Shown here: piece by piece, positions 11,510 through 24,366 of the stretch
Layout: every line of letters begins with the position of its first letter
How positions within the stretch are numbered: position 1 is the first letter of the stretch
Source of the DNA: Candidatus Babeliales bacterium
GTDB lineage: Bacteria > Babelota > Babeliae > Babelales > JANWKD01
Assembly (NCBI GenBank): GCA_963722075.1
Contig: CAVRJM010000001.1
Location: 960,001 to 1,024,000 of the forward strand
Direction: 5' to 3'
DNA: 64,000 nucleotides
Translations under genes and position numbers: made by a program
The notes under the pieces: model-generated
The model's database searches: none
What the model was told of the DNA's origin: nothing
The model's input: only the letters and a program-made list of their open reading frames with translations

Positions 11510-11866
11510 TTATCCCTTCGACCGTGGATGGGGAATAATAGCAGTAACAACTATAGATTCTTTTTGATCACCGTAATACCAAAAAATGCGATAAGCATGC
11601 GGCGTATGTTGCTCCACATATGCTTCAAACAGCTTTTGGCCATCAGGCCCCTTAGTCCCATGGTATTCATGAGTATTTAATGAAGGATGACGCAAATTTT
11701 CCTGCATAAAATGCAATGCTTTGATAACATCTTTTAATACACGAGCTTGAGAATGATCACGATTCAACTCCTCAAGTTCTTTTAAGGCATCTTCAGTGAA
11801 AATAACTTTCAACAAATTTTTTGTCCCCGTAACCCCATTTGTGTTCCCATACACCCTTAAAATCAT
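11510..11866 (-). CDS. Orphan RelE/ParE-like toxin (true start probably downstream of 11866)
   Basis: VIFTEDALKEL, RHPSLNTHEY, YRIFWYY, VTAIIPHP; no adjacent antitoxin seen. Confidence 0.6.
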   Translation of the reverse strand: MILRVYGNTNGVTGTKNLLKVIFTEDALKELEELNRDHSQARVLKDVIKALHFMQENLRHPSLNTHEYHGTKGPDGQKLFEAYVEQHTPHAYRIFWYYGDQKESIVVTAIIPHPRSKG

Positions 11867-12307: not shown

Positions 12308-12398
12308 GGAGAGATGGCTGAGCGGTCTAAAGCGCTTGCCTGCTAAGCAAGAGCTCCAGAAATGGGGCACGAGGGTTCGAATCCCTCTCTCTCCGCCA
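12308..12398 (+). tRNA. tRNA-Ser(GCT)
   Basis: GGAGAGATGGCTGAG...CT-GCT-AA...GGTTCGAATCC...GCCA. Confidence 0.95.
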
Positions 12399-12577
12399 GT
12401 CATTTCCTTCAGAAATGCCTGGCAGGCCAGTTAAGGTCAATTGATAAAGAAGATTGCCCGTGCGCCGTAACTTTAGTGAAGGAGCATCCGGCATAGCTGT
12501 AAGCGACGACGGACTAATTTATTCTCCTATCGGTTTGAAATTGATGCAAAGACTAGACATTTTAATTGAAATAATAC

Positions 12578-12654
12578 GCGCCTATAGCTCAATTGGATAG
12601 AGCGTCAGACTACGGATCTGAAGGTTTAAGGTTCGACTCCTTATAGGCGCACCA
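12578..12654 (+). tRNA. tRNA-Arg(ACG)
   Basis: GCGCCTATAGCTCAATTGG...CT-ACG-GA...GGTTCGACTCC...ACCA. Confidence 0.95.
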
Positions 12655-12817
12655 GGCATTTCTGAGGGAAATGACTGGCAAGCCAGCTACGCCATAGCGC
12701 ATAAAGCGGCGGACTTGTCCCGCCGAAGCTTGCCAAGTTGGAAGGCATGGATAAGCGTAAGCGGATTGAAATTATAACGTAATTTGTTATAAATTATATA
12801 AACACTGAAATTTATAC

Positions 12818-12909
12818 GGAGAGATGGCAGAGCGGTCGAATGCGGCGGTCTTGAAAACCGTTATCCCGAGAGATCGGGATCGTGGGTTCGAATCCCACTC
12901 TCTCCTCCA
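12818..12909 (+). tRNA. tRNA-Ser(TGA)
   Basis: GGAGAGATGGCAGAG...CT-TGA-AA...GGTTCGAATCC...TCCA. Confidence 0.95.
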
Positions 12910-13316
12910 ATCTTCGCCTGCATGAGAATAACTTCGAAGGCAAATTAGGCTACGATTGGCTAACCGCCAGTTAAGGTCAATTGATAAAGAAGATTGTCCG
13001 TCGTAGCTCAGGCGTGCTTCAGCAATATCCCATCGCAAGCGAAGACTGGACAGCCTGGCATGCCAATTCTTTTAAGGAAATATTTCCCCCCAAAACCCCT
13101 TTGTATCCAAAAAAAACTCTTAAAATACAAATTAAAAAGCCATTTTAATCCATACTTTCTATTTTTTATGGTAAAAAAGGGTCTAAACATACATTTTTTT
13201 GCCATTGTTCTGCCGTTATTTTGCCAATAAAAACTCGTTATTTCAGTTTTAGCGATATTTTGTATATAAAATACTATTTTATGGCTTTTTAACTGGAATT
13301 ATCAACAAATTTCTAT

Positions 13317-13345
13317 TTGACAATTTATAAAATCTATACTATATT
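13317..13345 (+). promoter_or_regulatory. Sigma70-like promoter of the Skp1-WD40 array
   Basis: TTGACA-N17-TATATT. Confidence 0.55.
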
Positions 13346-13393
13346 TTAATTACTGTTAATACATATTTTATGGATAAAAATAGAGGTTATTTC

Positions 13394-15595
13394 ATGAAGT
13401 TAGTTAAAAAATTATTACTTGCCGCTTTCGCGCTTCCCTTATTAAACGCACAAGGTATGGAACCTGATTCAGTTGATATCGATTCCAGCACAATAGCGTT
13501 ATTTAAAACCAATGATAAGCAAAATGTTGCTATAGAGTTTAAATATATTGCTCATCAATCTAAAACACTGGTAAATCAGATTAAAGCTGCTGGTACGCTG
13601 AATGAAGCAACTGAAATCCCTTGCTCAAAAGAAACATTTATAATACTTCAAGCCGCATTGCAAGAAGCTTATATCCATAATTGTATTAATGATGAGTTTT
13701 TTGAAAGTCTTACATCTTTAAATCCAGAGCAACTTATTAATATAGCTAATGCTGCCAGTTGGGCTGATTTCCAATCACTTATAAAAACCGTAATAGAAAT
13801 AATTGGGCAGCGTTGCTTAAAGCATGAGAGTTACTTACCGCACGAGATATTAGAATCTTATCATTCATTAGGGTTAAATGATGTTTTAACAGAATTGATA
13901 AGAAATCTGCTTGATAAAAAAACATCTCAGAATGAACCAGCAGAAAATGAAGCTCAAGTAACATTAGTTGCCAATGATGGCAAAGAATTTAAAATATTAA
14001 AATCAATAGCCAGCCATTTCAAGACAATTCAACATATTATGGGCGATTATGATAATGAGACTGAAGCAATTCCTTTGCCTAATGTGGCTTCAGAAACATT
14101 ACAAACATTAATTTCCATAGCTAAGAACATAAACCAAGAAAATCCCGAACCAATAAGCATTATGGAAGGATTAATACCACAAGATACTCAAAAAATTATC
14201 GATCTTTTTACTGCTGCTGATTATTTAGGCAGTGAATATATATGCAATGGCCTTATTTCCATTATTGAAAAAAAATTGAATGATTCTGAATTACTTAATG
14301 ATTATGATAAAATTGCTTGGCTCTTACAAAACAGCACTCCATCCCTTATTCAGAAATTAGACCTCACTACTTTTTTTACTTCACTAATTCCTGATCAAAT
14401 TACCGCAACTACATTGACTGGCCATAGTTACTTTATTGCTTCAGTAGCTTTTAGCCCGAATAATAAATTACTTGCAACGGGATCTGATCAAACTATTAAA
14501 ATATGGGATGTTGTTGATGGCTCTTGCATAAAAACCTTAAAGGGCCGTAATCTTATTGATCTTATAGCATTTAGCCCTAACGGACAGATACTTGCTACTG
14601 GTTCGACTTGGAAAAAAATCGTTCAACTATGGAATGTTGTTAGTGGTTCTTGCCTACACACCTTAACTGTGCATGATGATTCTGATCTTAGTTGTTTTGC
14701 CTTTAGCCCAGATGGTACTCTCCTTGCAACTGATTCCGATGATAACATTAAACTATGGAATGTTATTGATGGTTCAAGCTTATTTACTTTAACCGATGTT
14801 TGTTTACACATCAGTTGTCTTGCTTTTAGCCCCGATGGCAATCTTCTTGTAACGAGCTCTGATAAAAAGATTAAATTATGGAATGTTGTTGATGGCTCTT
14901 GCATAAACACCTTAAAGGGCCATAAGAAAGATATTAAAAATCTTGCATTTAGTCCAAATGGTAAGATACTTGCCTCTATTTCAAGAGATAAAGTTATTAA
15001 ATTATGGGATGCTACTTCATTTGACTGCTTGCATACATTAGTTAGTCCTCCTACTAACAATAATACTCAAAGGTATATCTGCCGTGACCATATAGTTTTT
15101 AGTCCAGATGGTAATCTTCTGGCAACTGTTGTGGCTGGAGATTCAATGCTTAACATATGGGACGTGCATAAGGGCTCTCATCTATATACATTAACCGGCC
15201 ATACTCATCTCATAAGCGGGTTAACCTTTAGCCATAATGGTAATAAAATTATTACTGCATCTTGGGATAAAACAGTTAAATTATGGGACATTAAAACCGG
15301 TGTTTGTTTAAAGACCTTAACAGAGCATACCCAAGAAGTTCGATGCCTTACTCTAAGTCCTAATGGCCACCTACTTGCTACTGGTTCCAAAGATAATACT
15401 ATTAAATTATGGCGTCTTTTTGATGAAGAACTTTTAAATTTATCTTGTGAACAACTCTTATTATTAAAATTTTATTATGAAGCTCATAAACATACTATTC
15501 CTTTTGAATGTTCTGACCAACCCTACTTAAAAGAACTACATGATAGTTATCCATCCTCAATTCGTATATGGATTAATAAATTAACTAAGAAATGA
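13394..15595 (+). CDS. Secreted Skp1/BTB-like x2 + WD40 repeat protein (paralog 1)
   Basis: GAGG RBS before MKLVKK; DGKEFKI...IPLPNV...LFTAADYL; about 8 AFSPDG/IKLWD repeats. Confidence 0.85.
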   Translation: MKLVKKLLLAAFALPLLNAQGMEPDSVDIDSSTIALFKTNDKQNVAIEFKYIAHQSKTLVNQIKAAGTLNEATEIPCSKETFIILQAALQEAYIHNCINDEFFESLTSLNPEQLINIANAASWADFQSLIKTVIEIIGQRCLKHESYLPHEILESYHSLGLNDVLTELIRNLLDKKTSQNEPAENEAQVTLVANDGKEFKILKSIASHFKTIQHIMGDYDNETEAIPLPNVASETLQTLISIAKNINQENPEPISIMEGLIPQDTQKIIDLFTAADYLGSEYICNGLISIIEKKLNDSELLNDYDKIAWLLQNSTPSLIQKLDLTTFFTSLIPDQITATTLTGHSYFIASVAFSPNNKLLATGSDQTIKIWDVVDGSCIKTLKGRNLIDLIAFSPNGQILATGSTWKKIVQLWNVVSGSCLHTLTVHDDSDLSCFAFSPDGTLLATDSDDNIKLWNVIDGSSLFTLTDVCLHISCLAFSPDGNLLVTSSDKKIKLWNVVDGSCINTLKGHKKDIKNLAFSPNGKILASISRDKVIKLWDATSFDCLHTLVSPPTNNNTQRYICRDHIVFSPDGNLLATVVAGDSMLNIWDVHKGSHLYTLTGHTHLISGLTFSHNGNKIITASWDKTVKLWDIKTGVCLKTLTEHTQEVRCLTLSPNGHLLATGSKDNTIKLWRLFDEELLNLSCEQLLLLKFYYEAHKHTIPFECSDQPYLKELHDSYPSSIRIWINKLTKK

Positions 15596-15616
15596 AGAGA
15601 ATAATGGAGTTATAAA

Positions 15617-17773
15617 ATGAAATTAATTAAAAAATTATTATTCCTCATGTGTGCACTTACTATAGCACAGAGCTATGGTATGAAGCGTAAAGCATCAGAA
15701 ATAGGATCTACATCAAAAACTAGTAATAAAAAAATAGAATATGATTCTGAAGTTATTGTTACATTTAAAACTACTGATGATCAATCTATACCGGTAAAAT
15801 TACACTATATTTCTGAGTATTCTAGAACATTATATGATATGTTTATAGATGCAAACGATTCAAATGAACCTATTCCAGTACCATTTTCATCAGAACCATT
15901 CACTTTTATCAGTGTTGCATTAGAAACAGCTTCCCACGGATCTTTTGATGCAAAGTTTGATGAAAAACTTGAATCGTTGAGCATATCTCAACTTATTGAT
16001 ATTGCTAATGCTGCTTCTTGGACCGATTTCCAACTTCTTATAGAATCAGTAGTAAAAGCACTTACTAATCGCTGCTTAAAAAATCCTTGTGCTCAAATAT
16101 TACGCAAATATAAAAAAAAAGATTTAGCTGATGCGCTACTTACTATAATTACTACTAACCTTATTGTTTTAGCCACTAATGATGGTAAAACATTTACCAT
16201 TTCATGCGATGAAATAACCGATTTTAAAGTTATTCAAAAAATGTTTAATGATCTTGAAAACAATAGTGAACCAATTCCACTACCTAATATTTCTTCCCCC
16301 ATATTAGAAGTACTTTTATATTGCAACAAGCATACAAGTAATTCGCAATCCATTATGAAGGAACTAATGGCTTATGATTTGAAACCTCTCTTTGACCTTT
16401 TTAATGCTGCTGATTATTTAGATCATGAAAAACTAGTCCATTTATTTGCCAGTATTATCGGTAAAAAGTTAAGTGATCCTGCATCATTACATGATTATGA
16501 GGACGTTGCTTGGGTTTTACAAAATAGCTCACCGTTACTTATTGAAAACCTACATAACGCATCATTCTTTAATTCATTACTTCAGCTGGTCTGTATACCA
16601 GATAAAATTAGTGAAACTACCCTGACAAATGACGGAGAATATTTCCAAATTGCTTTTGGTCCTGGTGATCAAACGCTTATAGCGAATGGTCACAGAAATG
16701 TTACGGTATGGGATACCAATTCTAATACCTGGATAAATACATTACCTAGGTTAAACAACGATTATCATTCCCAAGTGATCTTGTGCCCTAGTGCACAAAT
16801 CGCTGCTATTACTGGCCCCAGTGTTATTAAACTATATGATGTTATTACTAATAACTGTATCCTCACCTTAACAAACACTCCCGCTTGGGTTAAATATTTT
16901 GACTTTAGTCCTGATGGGAAAACCTTTGCTTTTTCTGACGACTATACTACCCAACTATGGAGTACACATACCGGTGAACATCTCCATACTTTAAGTTCTA
17001 CTGATTCAAATCATTTTTTTGCCTTTAGCCCTGATGGAAAAATCATTGCTAATTGTACTAAGAAAGCTATCAAATTATGGAATGTTACGACTGGAAGCTG
17101 TATCCATACTTTAGAAATTTCAGATAAATATATTGATCTTATTGTCGATTTAAAATTTAGTCCAGATGGGCAAACTTTAGCTACTTCCTCTTGGGATACC
17201 ACTACTAAATTATGGAATGTCATTACTGGAGAATGTATCTATACATTGCAAGGCCATAGTGGGGGAATCGAGGATATTGCCTTCAGTCCTAATGGCCAAA
17301 TCCTTGCTACTAGTTCTGTTGATCAAACTATTAAATTATGGGATGTTACTACTGGTGAATGTCTTCAAACGTTAAATATATTCAAAAAAGCGAATCGTAT
17401 TACCTTTAGCCCTGACAGTTGCATACTTGCTAGTTCTTCAAATAACATTATTCAATTATGGGATACTATTACTGGTAACTATATTCACACGATAAGCACA
17501 CATACTCAAACAATTCAATCTCTTGCCTTTAGTTCTAACAACCACATACTCGCTAGCGCATCAAATAGTACCATTAAATTACATCCTATCAGAGATCAAG
17601 AATTGTTAAATACGTATTGTAGTCTACCGCTAGAACAATTATTATTGCTTGCTTTCTGCCATAATGCTCATAGCCACCATATACCTTTTAATTTCTCTCA
17701 GCATGCATATTTAAATGAAATTTATGAAAGTTGCCCGGACACTGTTCGAACACGGATCCCGGATTTAAAATAG
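15617..17773 (+). CDS. Secreted Skp1/BTB-like x2 + WD40 repeat protein (paralog 2)
   Basis: DGKTFTI...PIPLPNI...LFNAADYL; WD40 repeats. Confidence 0.85.
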   Translation: MKLIKKLLFLMCALTIAQSYGMKRKASEIGSTSKTSNKKIEYDSEVIVTFKTTDDQSIPVKLHYISEYSRTLYDMFIDANDSNEPIPVPFSSEPFTFISVALETASHGSFDAKFDEKLESLSISQLIDIANAASWTDFQLLIESVVKALTNRCLKNPCAQILRKYKKKDLADALLTIITTNLIVLATNDGKTFTISCDEITDFKVIQKMFNDLENNSEPIPLPNISSPILEVLLYCNKHTSNSQSIMKELMAYDLKPLFDLFNAADYLDHEKLVHLFASIIGKKLSDPASLHDYEDVAWVLQNSSPLLIENLHNASFFNSLLQLVCIPDKISETTLTNDGEYFQIAFGPGDQTLIANGHRNVTVWDTNSNTWINTLPRLNNDYHSQVILCPSAQIAAITGPSVIKLYDVITNNCILTLTNTPAWVKYFDFSPDGKTFAFSDDYTTQLWSTHTGEHLHTLSSTDSNHFFAFSPDGKIIANCTKKAIKLWNVTTGSCIHTLEISDKYIDLIVDLKFSPDGQTLATSSWDTTTKLWNVITGECIYTLQGHSGGIEDIAFSPNGQILATSSVDQTIKLWDVTTGECLQTLNIFKKANRITFSPDSCILASSSNNIIQLWDTITGNYIHTISTHTQTIQSLAFSSNNHILASASNSTIKLHPIRDQELLNTYCSLPLEQLLLLAFCHNAHSHHIPFNFSQHAYLNEIYESCPDTVRTRIPDLK

Positions 17774-17782
17774 AGGTTTTAA

Positions 17783-20461
17783 ATGAAATTAATTAAAAAA
17801 TTATTACTCCTCATATGTGCGCTTACTATAGCAAATGGCTATGGCATGAAGCGTAAAGCATCAGAAATAGGATCTACATCAAAAACTAGTAATAAAAAAA
17901 TAGAATATGATTCCGAAGTTATTGTTAGATTTAAAACTACTGATGATCAACCGGTATCGGTAAAATTATATTATATTTCTAAGTATTCTAAAACATTATA
18001 TGATATGTATATAGATGCTGACGATTCAAATGAACCTATTCCCGTACCATTTTCATCAGAACCATTCACTTTTATCGCTGATGCGTTTCAAAGGGTTATT
18101 AACTCAAACTTATTTGAAAATAAACTTTATGAAAAAATTCAAGAGTTAACCATAGATCAATGCATTAACCTTGCAAATGCCGCTTGCTGGGCTGATTTTC
18201 AACTACTTATTGAAGCTATAGTAGAAATTATTACTCATCGTTGCTTATATAGCGAAAATCTTTCACCACAAGAAGTGTTAGATGAATATCAAAAACGGGA
18301 ATTAAATGATGCTTTACTCTTATTAATCAAAAATAAATTAAATCCCATTGAAAAACCATCTTTTACCATTACTTTCAAAACTGATGACGATCAACTAATT
18401 GAGGTGAATTCTATTTATTTCGTTGGTCAAGCCGACACGTTGCTTCAATTATTTAGACAACGGGGTGGGCAACCAGTTGCCATTCCATTTTCAATGGAAA
18501 CTTTTACTTTCATCATAGAAGCACTGCAACATAGCTATAGTACACAATCATTTGATGGCGAATTTTGTAAAAAATGGGAATTATTAACTCACAACCAATT
18601 GATCACTATTGCTAATGCCGCTCACTGCTATAATATTGAATCATTATTACAAAAAATAATAACAATAATAACGCATCGATGTTTAACTAGTGATGAATGC
18701 TTACACCCCCAGCTTGCATTGCAATCATATTATGAAAATGGCTTAGCTTCTGAGCTAATCCCATTAATCCAAAATGAACTTAATACAATCATCTCATCTG
18801 AAGAAAACACCATTGTTTTAATTACCAACGATCATCAAGAAATCGCTATTTGCCCATCTCAAGCACGTTCTTTTAAAACAATTCAAAATACAATAGATTC
18901 TTATGAAAATACAAATGAACCTATTTTTCTGCCCAATATTTCTCAAAACATATTGATGCTTCTTCTTCAAGCGCTCAAAAATATTACATATCAACACATA
19001 AATTCTTCAGTAGTCATAGAAGGTCTTGCAAATCAAACTGTTGAAACACTTATCGCTCTTTTTAATGCTGCAGATTATTTAGGAAGTGATTACGTATGCA
19101 AAGCACTTATGGCTACTATTGAAAAAAAATTGGATGAGCCTAGTTTTTTAGATAATTATGATAGTATCGCCTGGTTGTTACAAAGTAATTTTGATTTTTT
19201 TAATGAAACATTACAGAGCGGTTCATTTTTTTATTCATTATTACAACTAGTAGCTAAACCCCAAACAAACACACCAGCCAATATAATAAATCATGGTACA
19301 ACAATAAAAGGTATGAAATTTAGCCCAGATGGCCAACTTCTTGCAACTCTTACTGACAAAACCGTAACTATTTACAATTCTCATGATGGTTCAATTCTAG
19401 ATACATTAGAAGGTTTTTCTCTGGAGTACCCATCTTTATTATTTAGTCCCAATGGGCAATTTATTGTGGTACATGATAAAGGACCTTATGGAACTAGACT
19501 TATTATTAAAATATATGATGTTATCAATAAATCTTGTGTATACACATTACAATGCAAGAGCAATGTTAGAAATACCGTTTTCAGTCCTGATAGCCAAAAT
19601 CTTATTATATATTATTCTCATGGCACTATTGAATTAGTTAATATCATTAATAAATCTTATGATACTGTCGAAACTAACAACAAAAAATTTATGTGCACCG
19701 CATTTAGCCCCGATGCAACTATTTTTGCTATGACTTCAGATAATTTCATACAATTGTGGGATATTTATGAGTACCGTTATTTACCAATTTCAACTGGGCA
19801 TAAGGAACGAGTTAAGCATTTAGCATTTAGTCCTGATGGAAAATTCCTAGTAACAATCTTTATCGGTAACGATATCAAAATTTGGGATGTTTCTGATGGT
19901 TCTTGCTTACGTACAATAACCCATAATAATAGTTATATTAACCATGTTGTCTTTAGTCCCGATGGGGAATTTTTTGCTACATGCGCTGACAATGGCACTA
20001 TTACCTTATGGACCAATAATGGTGACCGGGTAAAAACATTGCTTGCTCATGATCAGCCAGTTTCATTCATTGCATTTAGTCCTTATGGGCAAATTCTTGT
20101 CTCTCAATCTGCTAAAACCGCTAAAATATGGGATATTAATAATGGATCTGGCATTTCAGAATATCATATCAGTGAAAAAGCTTTTATTAATTTTTTAGCC
20201 TTAAGTCCTGACGACCAACAACTCGCTATCAATTCTTCCGATGGAACCACTGCGTTATATCCCCTTTATGATCATGATCTGGCAACATCGTTTATGGCGT
20301 TACCTTTTGAACAATTGCTACTACTCAAACTATGTTATAATGCTTATAGGTATACTATTCCATTCAATTTTTCTGGCCATCCGTATTTAAAAGAAGTGTA
20401 TGATAGTTGTCCTGATATCGTCCAAACATGGATTAATAAATTAATACCACCACAAAAATAG
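17783..20461 (+). CDS. Secreted Skp1/BTB-like x3 + WD40 repeat protein (paralog 3)
   Basis: Three modules ending LANAACWADF / IANAAHCYNI / LFNAADYL; WD40 repeats. Confidence 0.85.
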   Translation: MKLIKKLLLLICALTIANGYGMKRKASEIGSTSKTSNKKIEYDSEVIVRFKTTDDQPVSVKLYYISKYSKTLYDMYIDADDSNEPIPVPFSSEPFTFIADAFQRVINSNLFENKLYEKIQELTIDQCINLANAACWADFQLLIEAIVEIITHRCLYSENLSPQEVLDEYQKRELNDALLLLIKNKLNPIEKPSFTITFKTDDDQLIEVNSIYFVGQADTLLQLFRQRGGQPVAIPFSMETFTFIIEALQHSYSTQSFDGEFCKKWELLTHNQLITIANAAHCYNIESLLQKIITIITHRCLTSDECLHPQLALQSYYENGLASELIPLIQNELNTIISSEENTIVLITNDHQEIAICPSQARSFKTIQNTIDSYENTNEPIFLPNISQNILMLLLQALKNITYQHINSSVVIEGLANQTVETLIALFNAADYLGSDYVCKALMATIEKKLDEPSFLDNYDSIAWLLQSNFDFFNETLQSGSFFYSLLQLVAKPQTNTPANIINHGTTIKGMKFSPDGQLLATLTDKTVTIYNSHDGSILDTLEGFSLEYPSLLFSPNGQFIVVHDKGPYGTRLIIKIYDVINKSCVYTLQCKSNVRNTVFSPDSQNLIIYYSHGTIELVNIINKSYDTVETNNKKFMCTAFSPDATIFAMTSDNFIQLWDIYEYRYLPISTGHKERVKHLAFSPDGKFLVTIFIGNDIKIWDVSDGSCLRTITHNNSYINHVVFSPDGEFFATCADNGTITLWTNNGDRVKTLLAHDQPVSFIAFSPYGQILVSQSAKTAKIWDINNGSGISEYHISEKAFINFLALSPDDQQLAINSSDGTTALYPLYDHDLATSFMALPFEQLLLLKLCYNAYRYTIPFNFSGHPYLKEVYDSCPDIVQTWINKLIPPQK

Positions 20462-20471
20462 AGGTTATAAA

Positions 20472-22682
20472 ATGAAATTAATTAAAAAAATACTAGTACT
20501 TGCTTGCGTACTTCCGTTGTTCAGTACTTATTGTATGGAAAACTCGACCGTTCTATGCAAAACGAGCGATGAGAAGTATGTTCGCCTTCCCGTAGAATAT
20601 CTTAATAAATCACGAACCTTCTATAATGATTTTATTGAAGCAAGCAAAAAAACAGATAAACAATCAATTCCAACGATTAACGTATTTTGCTCTAAAGAAA
20701 CATTCATATTGCTCATGGAAGCGCTTAAGATAGCTTATCTAAAGGATTCTTTAGATAAATCATTTTGTGAAAAGCTTTCAGCATTAACTACTCCTACTCA
20801 AGGGCTTATTGATCTTGCCAACGCCGCCTGCTACGCCGATTTCCAACTGCTTATAGCAACAATGATAGAAATCATAGGTCAGCGATGCTTGGATCATGAA
20901 TCTTATTTACCAGATGAAATGTTACAATCTTATAAAAAAATGGGCTTAACGGATGAATTTGTTGCATTAGTTATCCGCTATTTAAACTCGCCTGCACTTA
21001 ATAGATCATCGATGGAAACAGAACCACAAACTATTACCATTTTTACCAACGATGATGAAACATTCACTATTCCTATAGCAATAGCAGCTCATTTTAAAAT
21101 TATTCAAAATATTCACCCCTTTAATGAAGAGTTAACAAGACCAATTGAATTACCAAATATTAATTCAACGGAATTAGAAAAGCTTCTTCATCTTCTTAAC
21201 AAGCTTCTGCAATCTGATGAAGAACAATCGGATCTTATTAATGAATTACTATCTTATGATATTAAGGATGTTATTACTCTTTTTAACGCGGCAGATTATT
21301 TAAATAGCGATACATTATGTGAATTGTTACTCAGTGTTATCGAGCAAAAATTAAAAAATCCTGAACTTTTATATGATAATGACACCATTGCATGGATACT
21401 ACAAAATCAGCAAAATAGAACCATACTTATTAACCATCTGATTCAAACGCCTTTTATTAAGGGATTACTCAATTTTATTTGCAAATCAGATAAAATTGAA
21501 CCTGTTGCGCTCAGAGGATATAGCGGCCCTTACCGTATTGCTTTTAGTCCTGATGAAAAAATCCTTGCTACTACTACTTCTCGTACAATAGTACTTTGGG
21601 ATACCGCCACGGTTAAAGCCCTGCGTACCCTAGATATGGGTAGAACTTTTAGTCTTGCCTTTAGCCCAGATGGGAAATTTCTTGCTACCGGTTCAGATGG
21701 CAAAAATGCTATTAAATTATGGAATCCTCATACTGGCGACTGCATCCATACCTTCCAAAAAGCGAATGGTCATTTCACGCGTCTTACCTTCAGCCCTAAT
21801 GGGAAAATACTTGCCTCTGTTTGCGCTTCTGATTCCTTTCAGCTTTGGAACACAAGTACATTTCGTTGCCTTTATAAGGCAACCAATATTAACCGAATTC
21901 CTGGTGTAGCTTTTAGCCCTGATGGAAAATTTTTAGCCGCCTGTTCTGAAAATATTCTTAAAATATGGGATACAAATACTTTTGACTGTATTTATACTCT
22001 TGATGAGCATACTGCGCAAATTAATCGTTTTGCATTTAGTCCACAGGGCCATTTTGTTGCTACCTGTTCTGACGATACCACTATTAAACTGTGGGATGTT
22101 GATACCGGTAGATGTGTACGAACTTTTAATGATACCGATAAAGTTACCTGTTTAACCTTTAGCCCCGATGAGAAAATACTTGTCACCGCCTCTTCTGATC
22201 ATTATCGTAAACTCTGGGATGTACATACTGGCAAATGCTTAAAAGCAACTTACGGTCCTCAATTTTGCGTTCTTGCCTTTAGTCCACATGGCCTATTTCT
22301 TGCAGGTTCATCCAAGGATAGTGTTAGTTTATGGGATACGAGTACTAATTACTCATTAATTCATAATGATAGCCATAGAGAAGTAGATGCCCTCCGGTTT
22401 AGCCCTAATGGTCAATTTCTTGCTACTGCATCTTTTGGTGAGGTCTTTTTACGAAGAATGGTTGATACGGCAAAAATAGAAGAATATAAATATTTACCAC
22501 CAGAACAATTGTTGTTACTTGCCTTTTGCTATAATGCGTTTGCAAACAAAATTACTTTTGATTTCTCTTGGCACCCCTATTTAAACGAGGTATATAATAA
22601 CTGTTCTTCTGCAGTACGTGATCTGATTACCCAAAAGTTAATGCCAACTGGTTACCAACCAAGCTCATGCTTACTTAGTTAA
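20472..22682 (+). CDS. Secreted Skp1/BTB-like x2 + WD40 repeat protein with C-terminal CaaX (paralog 4)
   Basis: IELPNI...LFNAADYL; WD40 repeats; ends CLLS. Confidence 0.85.
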   Translation: MKLIKKILVLACVLPLFSTYCMENSTVLCKTSDEKYVRLPVEYLNKSRTFYNDFIEASKKTDKQSIPTINVFCSKETFILLMEALKIAYLKDSLDKSFCEKLSALTTPTQGLIDLANAACYADFQLLIATMIEIIGQRCLDHESYLPDEMLQSYKKMGLTDEFVALVIRYLNSPALNRSSMETEPQTITIFTNDDETFTIPIAIAAHFKIIQNIHPFNEELTRPIELPNINSTELEKLLHLLNKLLQSDEEQSDLINELLSYDIKDVITLFNAADYLNSDTLCELLLSVIEQKLKNPELLYDNDTIAWILQNQQNRTILINHLIQTPFIKGLLNFICKSDKIEPVALRGYSGPYRIAFSPDEKILATTTSRTIVLWDTATVKALRTLDMGRTFSLAFSPDGKFLATGSDGKNAIKLWNPHTGDCIHTFQKANGHFTRLTFSPNGKILASVCASDSFQLWNTSTFRCLYKATNINRIPGVAFSPDGKFLAACSENILKIWDTNTFDCIYTLDEHTAQINRFAFSPQGHFVATCSDDTTIKLWDVDTGRCVRTFNDTDKVTCLTFSPDEKILVTASSDHYRKLWDVHTGKCLKATYGPQFCVLAFSPHGLFLAGSSKDSVSLWDTSTNYSLIHNDSHREVDALRFSPNGQFLATASFGEVFLRRMVDTAKIEEYKYLPPEQLLLLAFCYNAFANKITFDFSWHPYLNEVYNNCSSAVRDLITQKLMPTGYQPSSCLLS

Positions 22683-22705
22683 AACACTGTCCAAATTATT
22701 TCTAA

Positions 22706-22749
22706 TTGAAAAAATAGCTAGTTAAAATTATAATTAGCTATTTTTTCAA
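22706..22749 (+). terminator. Hairpin after the WD40 array
   Basis: TTGAAAAAATAGCTA / TAGCTATTTTTTCAA inverted repeat. Confidence 0.5.
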
Positions 22750-22803
22750 AAAAATAGTATTATTAATTAAAATAATGATCCAGTCAATAAATGGGGGATT
22801 TAT

Positions 22804-24366
22804 ATGACCATGGTACGTTGGTTAAAATTAATCACTATTCTTATCAGTATAACTGCTGCATTTTTCTTTATTAACAAAAACGCTCATATACTTATTCATA
22901 CAGGATATGAATTATACTTCAAATTAATGCATCCTATCCCAAAAAAATCCCTTTGCCCTTATCAAGCTACCAATAAACGATTTGGCTTTAACTCGGTAAC
23001 CTCTGCTACTCCTTTACAAGAATTAAAACACACCGGATCATTACCAAGCTGGCTCAAAGGAACCTTCTTAGCAACAGTACCCGCTCAATTTGAATTAGGA
23101 AATACTAAAGCCGCTTATTCCTTTAGTGGCCTTGCTATGCTACAAGGGTTTTATTTTGATGGCAATGGTATTAAATTTCAAAACTCATTCTTAGATAGTA
23201 TTTATTACCGCCGTTGCACAAAAAACGGCAAATTTGATAGCAACATGACCAATCAAAAAAAAAGCTTTTTTTCACGGTTAGCAAACAGTTTTAGCACTCC
23301 CGATCCTTATGACAATGGCAACATTGCTATAGGATATATGAATGGTAATGCAATCGCCTTAACAGAAACAACATTGGGTGTTATTGTTGATTCCAACACC
23401 TTACATACAAGAGCATCATTTGATCTTAATGAGCAGCTGGAAGGGCATCTTACCACTGCTCAATTTCAGTATGATCCTGAAACTAAATCGTGGTATAATT
23501 ATATGACAAACTTTGCACAACAAAGCACTTATCAGATTTATAAAATTACCGCTGATAACAAAACAGTATTAATTAGTTCCATACCGGTTAAAACGCCATC
23601 ATACATGCGCAGCTTTGCCATGAGCAAAGATTATATCGTGTTGATTGAGATTCCTTTTGTAGTTAATCCCATGGATTTATTATTTAATGGAGGGCCATTT
23701 TTAACTGCATTACAATGGAAACCTGAGCTGGGAACTCGTTTTATTGTAATTAATAAACATACGGGTGAGCAACACCAACCATTGGTTACCACTCAACCAT
23801 TTTTCACGATTAATATTATCAATACCACTCAAGAAAATAATACCCTTACCATAGATGCTATTACCTATGAAAATGCTGACTTAATAAACCATATCAGTAT
23901 GGAAGCATTGCAGAGTAATGATCCGCATGAATTTGAACCAGGATATACTACCCGTTTCACACTCAATCTAGAAAATAAAGAAGCATCACATCAGCGCATT
24001 CCTTCTGCAGCCATTGAATTCCCTACTATAAATGCACAATACAACATGAAGCCATATACATTCTTATACGGACTTACTGCTGATCACCCACACCAATTTC
24101 CTGCACAGCTTATTAAAATAAACATAAGCAATGGAACTTCAACTAAATGGCAACAAGAACAGTGCTTTGCCAGCCAGCCGGTGTTTGTACCAAATCCTAC
24201 CGGAACTAATGAAGATGACGGTGTTATTCTTTCTGTTGTTTTTGATAGTATTGCACATCAATCATTTTTACTGCTATTGGATGCGCATAATTTTACGGAG
24301 CTTGCACGCGCACCGCTGCCATGCGCTATTCCATTGGGACTTTCAGGTACGTTTATTAAAGAATAA
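22804..24366 (+). CDS. Carotenoid oxygenase (RPE65/CCD) fold protein lacking the iron-binding His
   Basis: GSLPSWLKG, ALTE, EFPTIN, EDDGVILS, LDA..F.ELARA motifs; His ligands replaced. Confidence 0.85.
   Translation: MTMVRWLKLITILISITAAFFFINKNAHILIHTGYELYFKLMHPIPKKSLCPYQATNKRFGFNSVTSATPLQELKHTGSLPSWLKGTFLATVPAQFELGNTKAAYSFSGLAMLQGFYFDGNGIKFQNSFLDSIYYRRCTKNGKFDSNMTNQKKSFFSRLANSFSTPDPYDNGNIAIGYMNGNAIALTETTLGVIVDSNTLHTRASFDLNEQLEGHLTTAQFQYDPETKSWYNYMTNFAQQSTYQIYKITADNKTVLISSIPVKTPSYMRSFAMSKDYIVLIEIPFVVNPMDLLFNGGPFLTALQWKPELGTRFIVINKHTGEQHQPLVTTQPFFTINIINTTQENNTLTIDAITYENADLINHISMEALQSNDPHEFEPGYTTRFTLNLENKEASHQRIPSAAIEFPTINAQYNMKPYTFLYGLTADHPHQFPAQLIKINISNGTSTKWQQEQCFASQPVFVPNPTGTNEDDGVILSVVFDSIAHQSFLLLLDAHNFTELARAPLPCAIPLGLSGTFIKE

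Follow-up and report, generated by a model that had tools for sequence, protein, structure and literature searches.

A 64,000-nucleotide stretch of a Candidatus Babeliales bacterium genome (GenBank assembly GCA_963722075.1, contig CAVRJM010000001.1, positions 960,001 to 1,024,000; hereafter the window) carries a tandem array of four paralogous genes whose products combine a signal peptide, two or three modules derived from the eukaryotic cullin adaptor Skp1, a WD40 propeller and a helical tail. We narrowly favour the reading that the four proteins are one-chain adaptor/receptors, which would dock on host Cul1 via the propeller-proximal module. The genome (1.47 Mb, about 35% G+C, 99% complete) belongs to the Babelota (Dependentiae), whose hosts, as given in one source, are Amoebozoa, stramenopiles, and a ciliate (PMC12172432).

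The four open reading frames (ORFs) all lie on the + strand, separated by gaps of 21, 9, and 10 bp, and a purine-rich stretch resembling a ribosome-binding site (RBS) precedes the start of each. A sequence-only reading of the window had described such co-oriented paralogs, 9-21 bp apart, each with a signal peptide, 2-3 modules, a WD40 domain and a conserved tail, and this layout was recovered in 4/4 proteins: a hydrophobic N-terminus, the modules, a propeller of eight WD40 blades, and a roughly 55-residue tail with EQLLL in all four. Genes 1-4 encode 2, 2, 3, and 2 modules, respectively; each module comprises about 115 residues and is followed by two helices. The proteins are about 40% identical to one another, while the first 465 nt of genes 2 and 3 are 83% identical, a shared 5' end that reads as a more recent duplication or conversion. 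In window positions, the genes are:

13394..15595, + strand: gene 1 (P0001, 733 residues from an RBS-preceded ATG); signal peptide; upstream Skp1-like module 13487-13930; last Skp1-like module with two-helix extension 13949-14398; 8-bladed WD40 14399-15421; helical tail 15422-15592
15617..17773, + strand: gene 2 (P0002, 718 residues); signal peptide; upstream module 15749-16165; last module 16154-16606; WD40 16607-17587; tail
17783..20461, + strand: gene 3 (P0003, 892 residues); signal peptide; upstream modules 17915-18361 and 18359-18799; last module 18803-19267; WD40 19268-20260; tail
20472..22682, + strand: gene 4 (P0004, 736 residues); signal peptide; upstream module 20541-20996; last module 21024-21491; WD40 21492-22457; tail

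The last module of all four proteins passes the Pfam cut-off for Skp1_POZ (PF03931; E 3e-15 to 4e-7), that of gene 2 being the most Skp1-like in the array. The upstream modules fall below this cut-off on their own, but align with the last one. The Pfam BTB domain (PF00651) has no match in the four proteins, and PF01466, which covers the C-terminal helices 7-8 region of Skp1, has none in their N-terminal regions. A family profile built from 71 modules of the window and its relatives matches Dictyostelium Skp1 at E 5.6e-26, ElonginC at E 1e-12 to 1e-10, and the BTB domain of KBTBD (BTB-Kelch) at 2e-4; the match spans approximately residues 2-140 of 163 (mammalian chain) and stops before the C-terminal F-box-binding end. 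This shows that the last helices of Skp1 have been lost from the modules. The parts kept and lost match the division of labor described for Skp1, whose N-terminal part binds Cul1 and whose C-terminal part binds the F-box (PMC4403949). The motif PxPN, reported to be involved in the interaction of Skp1 with Cul1 (PMC1257465), is present in 18/19 eukaryotic Skp1 rows, in 4/4 last modules of the array, and in 0/5 upstream modules. In an Atlas search, the last module retrieved Skp1-type clusters at scores of 0.81-0.85, which lie below the reliable range, and the tail retrieved nothing; a word-indexed homolog search was nearly blind (one match, to itself, among 3801 candidates; five among 7994).

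Structure prediction points in the same direction. The AlphaFold2 model of mature P0001 has a mean predicted local distance difference test score (pLDDT) of 91.8 and a predicted template modelling score of 0.68; the secondary structure of its two modules is alike. Modelled alone, the upstream module reaches a pLDDT of 96.6. This upstream-module model retrieved only Skp1 chains among the Foldseek matches listed. The comparison with Skp1, ElonginC, and BTB that the sequence-only reading had proposed thus returned a Skp1/BTB fold for the P0001 upstream module, with Skp1 as the best match in a wide fold search (Z 12.6, root-mean-square deviation (rmsd) 2.7, 115 residues aligned, model 2-123 of 148). 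With ElonginC only residues 2-95 of the model are aligned (Z 9.5). The modules also run on past the core into further helices, unlike the ElonginC core fold, which is described as lacking the terminal A5 helix (PMC1257465). Taken together, the sequence and model comparisons support modules derived from Skp1 rather than from ElonginC or a generic BTB domain.

Beyond the Skp1 core, the full 148 residues of the model align with BTB plus 3-box structures, namely KLHL22 (Z 11.1), SPOP (Z 11.0), and KLHL3; KEAP1 (Z 10.4, model 1-143) and vaccinia A55 (Z 8.8) are matched as well. As the Skp1 match ends at residue 123 of the model and the BTB plus 3-box alignment covers its full length, the predicted module consists of a Skp1 core in which a 3-box-like helix pair replaces the last helices; this superposition concerns the upstream module, and the last module was compared by predicted secondary structure. 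In one-chain adaptors, the 3-box is described as the counterpart of an F-box and as strengthening the binding to Cul3 (PMC3597819). Such a resemblance raises the question of whether the proteins could be one-chain adaptors for another cullin, of the Cul3 or Cul2/5 type, their specificity having been switched along with the extension. The superposition, with Z values within 1.5 of Skp1, would fit this, as would the weak Pfam BTB scores of 8/71 family domains and the analogous cullin interfaces reported for Skp1, ElonginC, and BTB (PMC4403949). However, Skp1 is much the closer in sequence, its E-value being over 20 orders of magnitude lower than that of BTB-Kelch, and none of the four last modules has lost the Skp1-specific PxPN. 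The modules start at the first core strand, and the N-terminal extension that serves homodimerization in the BTB-zinc finger proteins covered by PMC1257465 is not evident in the model. We regard a switch to another cullin as the least probable of the alternatives considered here.

In the favoured reading, the proteins would be exported by the Sec pathway and then transferred by a type II system or vesicles into the protist host; the genome encodes two secretins. There, the propeller-proximal module would dock on host Cul1, replacing both Skp1 and an F-box protein, and the top face of the propeller would pick the host protein for ubiquitination. The upstream modules would not bind a cullin and would likely act as spacers or as self-association or partner domains. 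Signal-peptide-like ends were detected by one crude rule in 106/116 family proteins and in 394/836 ORFs of the genome. Since the own genome gave no F-box-like match and no cullin was found in 201 sampled phylum genomes (a search in which no positive control registered), the partner would be host-encoded. Throughout the phylum, the same N-terminal domain is joined to WD40, leucine-rich repeats (LRR), or ankyrin-like repeats, as in cullin receptors, and Babela is reported to encode an F-box protein, a RING protein, and secreted deubiquitinases (PMC4378268).

The propeller itself was earlier called a divergent WD40; WD40 it is, but the P0001 propeller is canonical (E 3e-76), and FSP-anchored blades number eight in each of the four proteins. 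It superposes on Fbw7 (Z 38.4, rmsd 8.7, 375 residues aligned) and on Cdc4 (Z 36.1, rmsd 2.2, 320 aligned). Because the 8-bladed ODA16, Rsa4, and TBLR1 outrank both, this match is not specific. The tail profile matches 24/193 family proteins, 19 of which have a detected WD40 domain. The idea that these fusions collapse Skp1 and an F-box receptor into one chain survives in part: the modules are Skp1-derived, the F-box-binding helices are gone and a propeller is fused, which fits a one-chain adaptor, but a whole F-box is not detectable. The Pfam F-box model scored on 1/24 linkers (E 0.031), and a linker profile searched against PDB sequences retrieved no F-box protein, FliG alone being matched (E 0.29).

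Several observations weigh against docking on host Cul1. A Sec signal leads to the periplasm only, and nearly half of the longer ORFs of this genome carry one. It is from sequence and models that we infer both the docking and the delivery into the host cytosol. The NYL helix motif of Skp1, which we take to be a cullin contact, takes the form DYL in the last modules of the array, and the upstream ones have lost it. Across 123 family modules, PN is retained in 19, P in 66, and [ND][YF]L in 78; the latter occurs in 11/23 last and 10/27 upstream modules of the multi-module representatives, so that an intact last module is not a general rule in the family. An LPx[ED] motif resembling F-box helix 1 follows 30/110 family modules (mean 2.1, maximum 6 in shuffles) and is absent after all four last modules of the array. 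Positive selection on the propeller, for which a comparison of non-synonymous (dN) and synonymous (dS) rates had been suggested earlier, found no support: in pairwise comparisons, dN stays below dS wherever dS can be computed, with dS near saturation. The top face is variable (2-6% identical positions, compared to 38-88% in the opposite a-b loop and 8-19% in other loops), a contrast that is no test of selection. The array genes look alive and under purifying selection. On the side of the Cul1 reading, the 32 changes listed for gene 3 in related strains from two soil DNA runs of one study divide into 24 synonymous and 8 non-synonymous ones; the full table has more than 200 differences, 185 of them outside this listing.

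The poor retention of PN (19/123) and the fast divergence would also be expected if the Skp1 fold had been domesticated as a generic N-terminal module for folding, oligomerization, or export that no longer engages cullins. Non-repeat fusion partners occur as well, the family is absent from 135/201 genomes, and drift has been proposed as a contributor to analogous chlamydial expansions (PMC4209131). Nevertheless, in four paralogs of 40% identity it is precisely the propeller-proximal module that has kept a Cul1-linked surface motif, which has disappeared from the five further modules. Such a domestication appears unlikely, if less so than a change of cullin.

The upstream modules bear on another alternative. 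The last module had been described as the best conserved, which is true relative to Skp1 and not between paralogs: identities range over 35-47% for upstream and 37-44% for last modules. As the upstream modules are as conserved as the last ones and form one clade (support 100/99), they must be maintained for some other role. This conservation would also fit array proteins that act as decoys and not as ligases, shutting down the host Skp1-Cul1-F-box (SCF) ligases by occupying Cul1, or by binding F-box proteins or Skp1 through helices 5-6, with the extra modules adding avidity. Helices 5-6, which are reported to make up F-box subsite 1 as well as the face through which Skp1 homodimerizes (PMC12101541), are kept in all modules, and some family members consist of several modules without a repeat domain (P0009, P0010, P0032) or of one short module only. 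Conversely, most members carry diverse repeat domains (WD40 in 98/193), which a pure decoy would not need, and in the model the two helices that follow the core may mask the site for an F-box. A decoy function is the most credible of the rivals to Cul1 docking, though still unlikely. In a maximum-likelihood module tree (54 of 149 rows), the two modules of a genome of the same genus (G194) pair with each other (100/98), apart from the array modules; independent origins of the tandem modules are not claimed here, as the approximately unbiased test does not reject a single upstream-module origin (p 0.122).

The Skp1-like domain extends far beyond the array. Pfam Skp1_POZ scores above cut-off in 33/201 phylum genomes and in 0/14 control genomes, and the family profile matches 66/201, with up to 20 scored matches per genome. 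Typical relatives join a signal peptide and the Skp1-like domain to WD40, LRR, ankyrin-like, or other domains, and their genes frequently lie in tandem. A library-wide search returned 9682 proteins at E <= 0.001; the 147 top matches that were new include 79 with a signal peptide and no Skp1 C-terminus, and 33 that are Skp1-like. Several modules occur in 23/79 of the signal-peptide matches (the ranking favors multi-domain proteins, and the 23 include a few of eukaryotic appearance). The novelty once placed in the multi-Skp1 architecture therefore does not hold: the upstream copies lack the Cul1 motif, and a design with several modules is common rather than unique to the array. Among single members, P0037 has three modules and C2H2-like zinc fingers, P0009 has three modules and no repeat domain, and one gene (L050:1601-2959) encodes one module and an HExxH-bearing region. 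Long tandem arrays are found in other Babeliales genomes (L090, G189:C1:73500-93000; L091, G072:C1:557700-567000); G189 has 20 scored matches of 44 candidates.

The own genome holds 14 profile matches, which a local search placed in 13 ORFs; a tenth candidate outside the array scores at E 0.026 only. The remaining nine, more diverged, two groups of which are in tandem, are fused to propeller, LRR-like, or ankyrin-like regions:

G000:C1:1354212-1360037, 791675-800986, 123568-125271, 550133-552097, 260057-261451, and 834450-836984: nine ORFs with Skp1-like domains (L069-L074)

Compared with known systems, the array proteins share with the Skp1 of SCF ligases (PF03931 plus PF01466) a homologous BTB-fold core and, in the last modules, PxPN; with SCF ligases containing Fbw7 or Cdc4 they share an 8-bladed WD40 propeller. 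They differ from Skp1 and FBXW proteins in being bacterial, in having a signal peptide, a single chain and extra upstream modules, and in lacking the C-terminal F-box-binding helices and a detectable full F-box. The BTB-3-box adaptors of Cul3 (KLHL/Kelch, SPOP, vaccinia A55), as presented in PMC3597819, likewise unite adaptor and receptor in one chain, with a BTB fold, a two-helix extension, and a propeller, and the whole upstream module superposes on them at Z 8.8-11.1; in the array, however, the core is Skp1-derived by sequence, the propeller is WD40 instead of Kelch, and the modules are in tandem. The proteins thus resemble a one-chain cullin adaptor, as far as sequence and models go, and are not Skp1, FBXW, or BTB-Kelch proteins by the full definitions.

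Among described systems, the chlamydial BTB-LRR family PEX1 of Protochlamydia (Domman et al. 2014, PMC4209131) comes closest. By its description there, it also comprises expanded tandem BTB-fold plus repeat proteins of an intracellular bacterium dwelling in protists, under purifying selection and with a proposed hijack of host ubiquitination; it is set apart by Pfam BTB domains, LRR only and type III signals, whereas the present family, from Babelota, has domains of the Skp1 type, signals of the Sec type, and repeats that may be WD40, LRR, or ankyrin. BTB/WD40 expansions had been said to be reported in this kind of parasite; in the text of the Dependentiae genome papers searched by term, BTB has 0 occurrences, and such expansions are described for Chlamydiae. 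Skp1 appears in the main text of the Babela paper PMC4378268 in a reference title only; Skp1 and BTB are absent from nine of its supplementary files and from the searched supplements of PMC4776705, a set without file 1, which may bear on the point. Full-text searches, whose coverage leaves out subscription journals, gave no description of Skp1-derived bacterial adaptors or of this Dependentiae family.

Giant viruses, also parasites of protists, encode Skp1/BTB-fold proteins, some longer than Skp1 (BFVD matches to Orpheovirus, Cedratvirus, Solumvirus, and a Moumouvirus WD40 protein). With one family member as query, no viral loci (0) and no close sequence relative were found; one giant-virus record examined holds a single stand-alone Skp1 and no cullin match. 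Two IMG/VR giant-virus contigs (L109, L112) carry full-length cullin genes; among named proteins, those most closely related to them are annotated as Cullin 1 and come from stramenopiles or are dinoflagellate-associated.

Two candidate regulatory elements flank the array:

13317..13345, + strand: sigma-70-like promoter candidate, intergenic, 5' of the array, 11/12 consensus match
22706..22749, no strand assigned: AT-rich perfect inverted repeat 3' of the array, possible terminator or operator

The single promoter-like site announced before the array is present, but the region holds 49 such sites compared to 58.3 in shuffles, so that the site by itself is no evidence. The hairpin announced after the array is real (z -5.66, matched in 0/200 shuffles); it is AT-rich, was not picked up by a terminator scan, and shares positions with a promoter-like site (11/12 match) of the gene that follows. 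A 145-residue ORF inside gene 1 and an 84-residue ORF inside gene 4 were taken as shadow frames.

The array is flanked by pilC, yggU, and tRNA genes on one side and a carotenoid-oxygenase-like gene on the other. As the corresponding slot holds unrelated genes and no Skp1-like gene in 3/3 genomes of the same family, the array is a lineage-specific insertion in a variable slot. The contents of the interval between the three tRNA genes and the carotenoid-oxygenase-like gene (12308-22803) differ in each of four same-family genomes, marking a variable insertion site. The latter gene (22804-24366; RPE65/carotenoid oxygenase family, E 6e-94) is at the same site in 3/3 of these relatives and is unexpected for a reduced parasite. 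A small ParE-like toxin gene (11510-11866; E 0.005, below cut-off) is unmatched in the syntenic loci of three relatives. One contig from a soil run joins a gene-3-like end (20416) to a gene-2/3-like start (15617), with a 51-base side, a hint that a related strain may contain further copies of the array.

Bacteria known to hijack SCF ligases contribute an F-box and rely on the Skp1 of the host. The array represents a variant of a known strategy, and its interest lies in the phylum-wide family and not in the extra modules. Chlamydiae were named as the only bacteria with BTB domains in a 2014 survey (PMC4209131). With somewhat less than an even chance, in our estimate, Babelota captured a eukaryotic Skp1 and swapped its F-box-binding end for a 3-box-like pair, giving a modular cullin adaptor that hundreds of secreted repeat proteins carry throughout the phylum. 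The outcome would amount to a convergent Cul3-type one-chain design on a Cul1 scaffold, sidestepping host Skp1 along with the controls that act on it, and the proteins would be the first Skp1 mimics from bacteria. If true, a large bacterial family carrying the Skp1 part itself would constitute a new route to the host cullin, and Cul1 adaptors that are compact, consist of one chain and have exchangeable binding domains would make useful models for cullin specificity and for engineered degraders. It would also provide the first concrete, testable virulence mechanism common to a poorly understood parasitic phylum.

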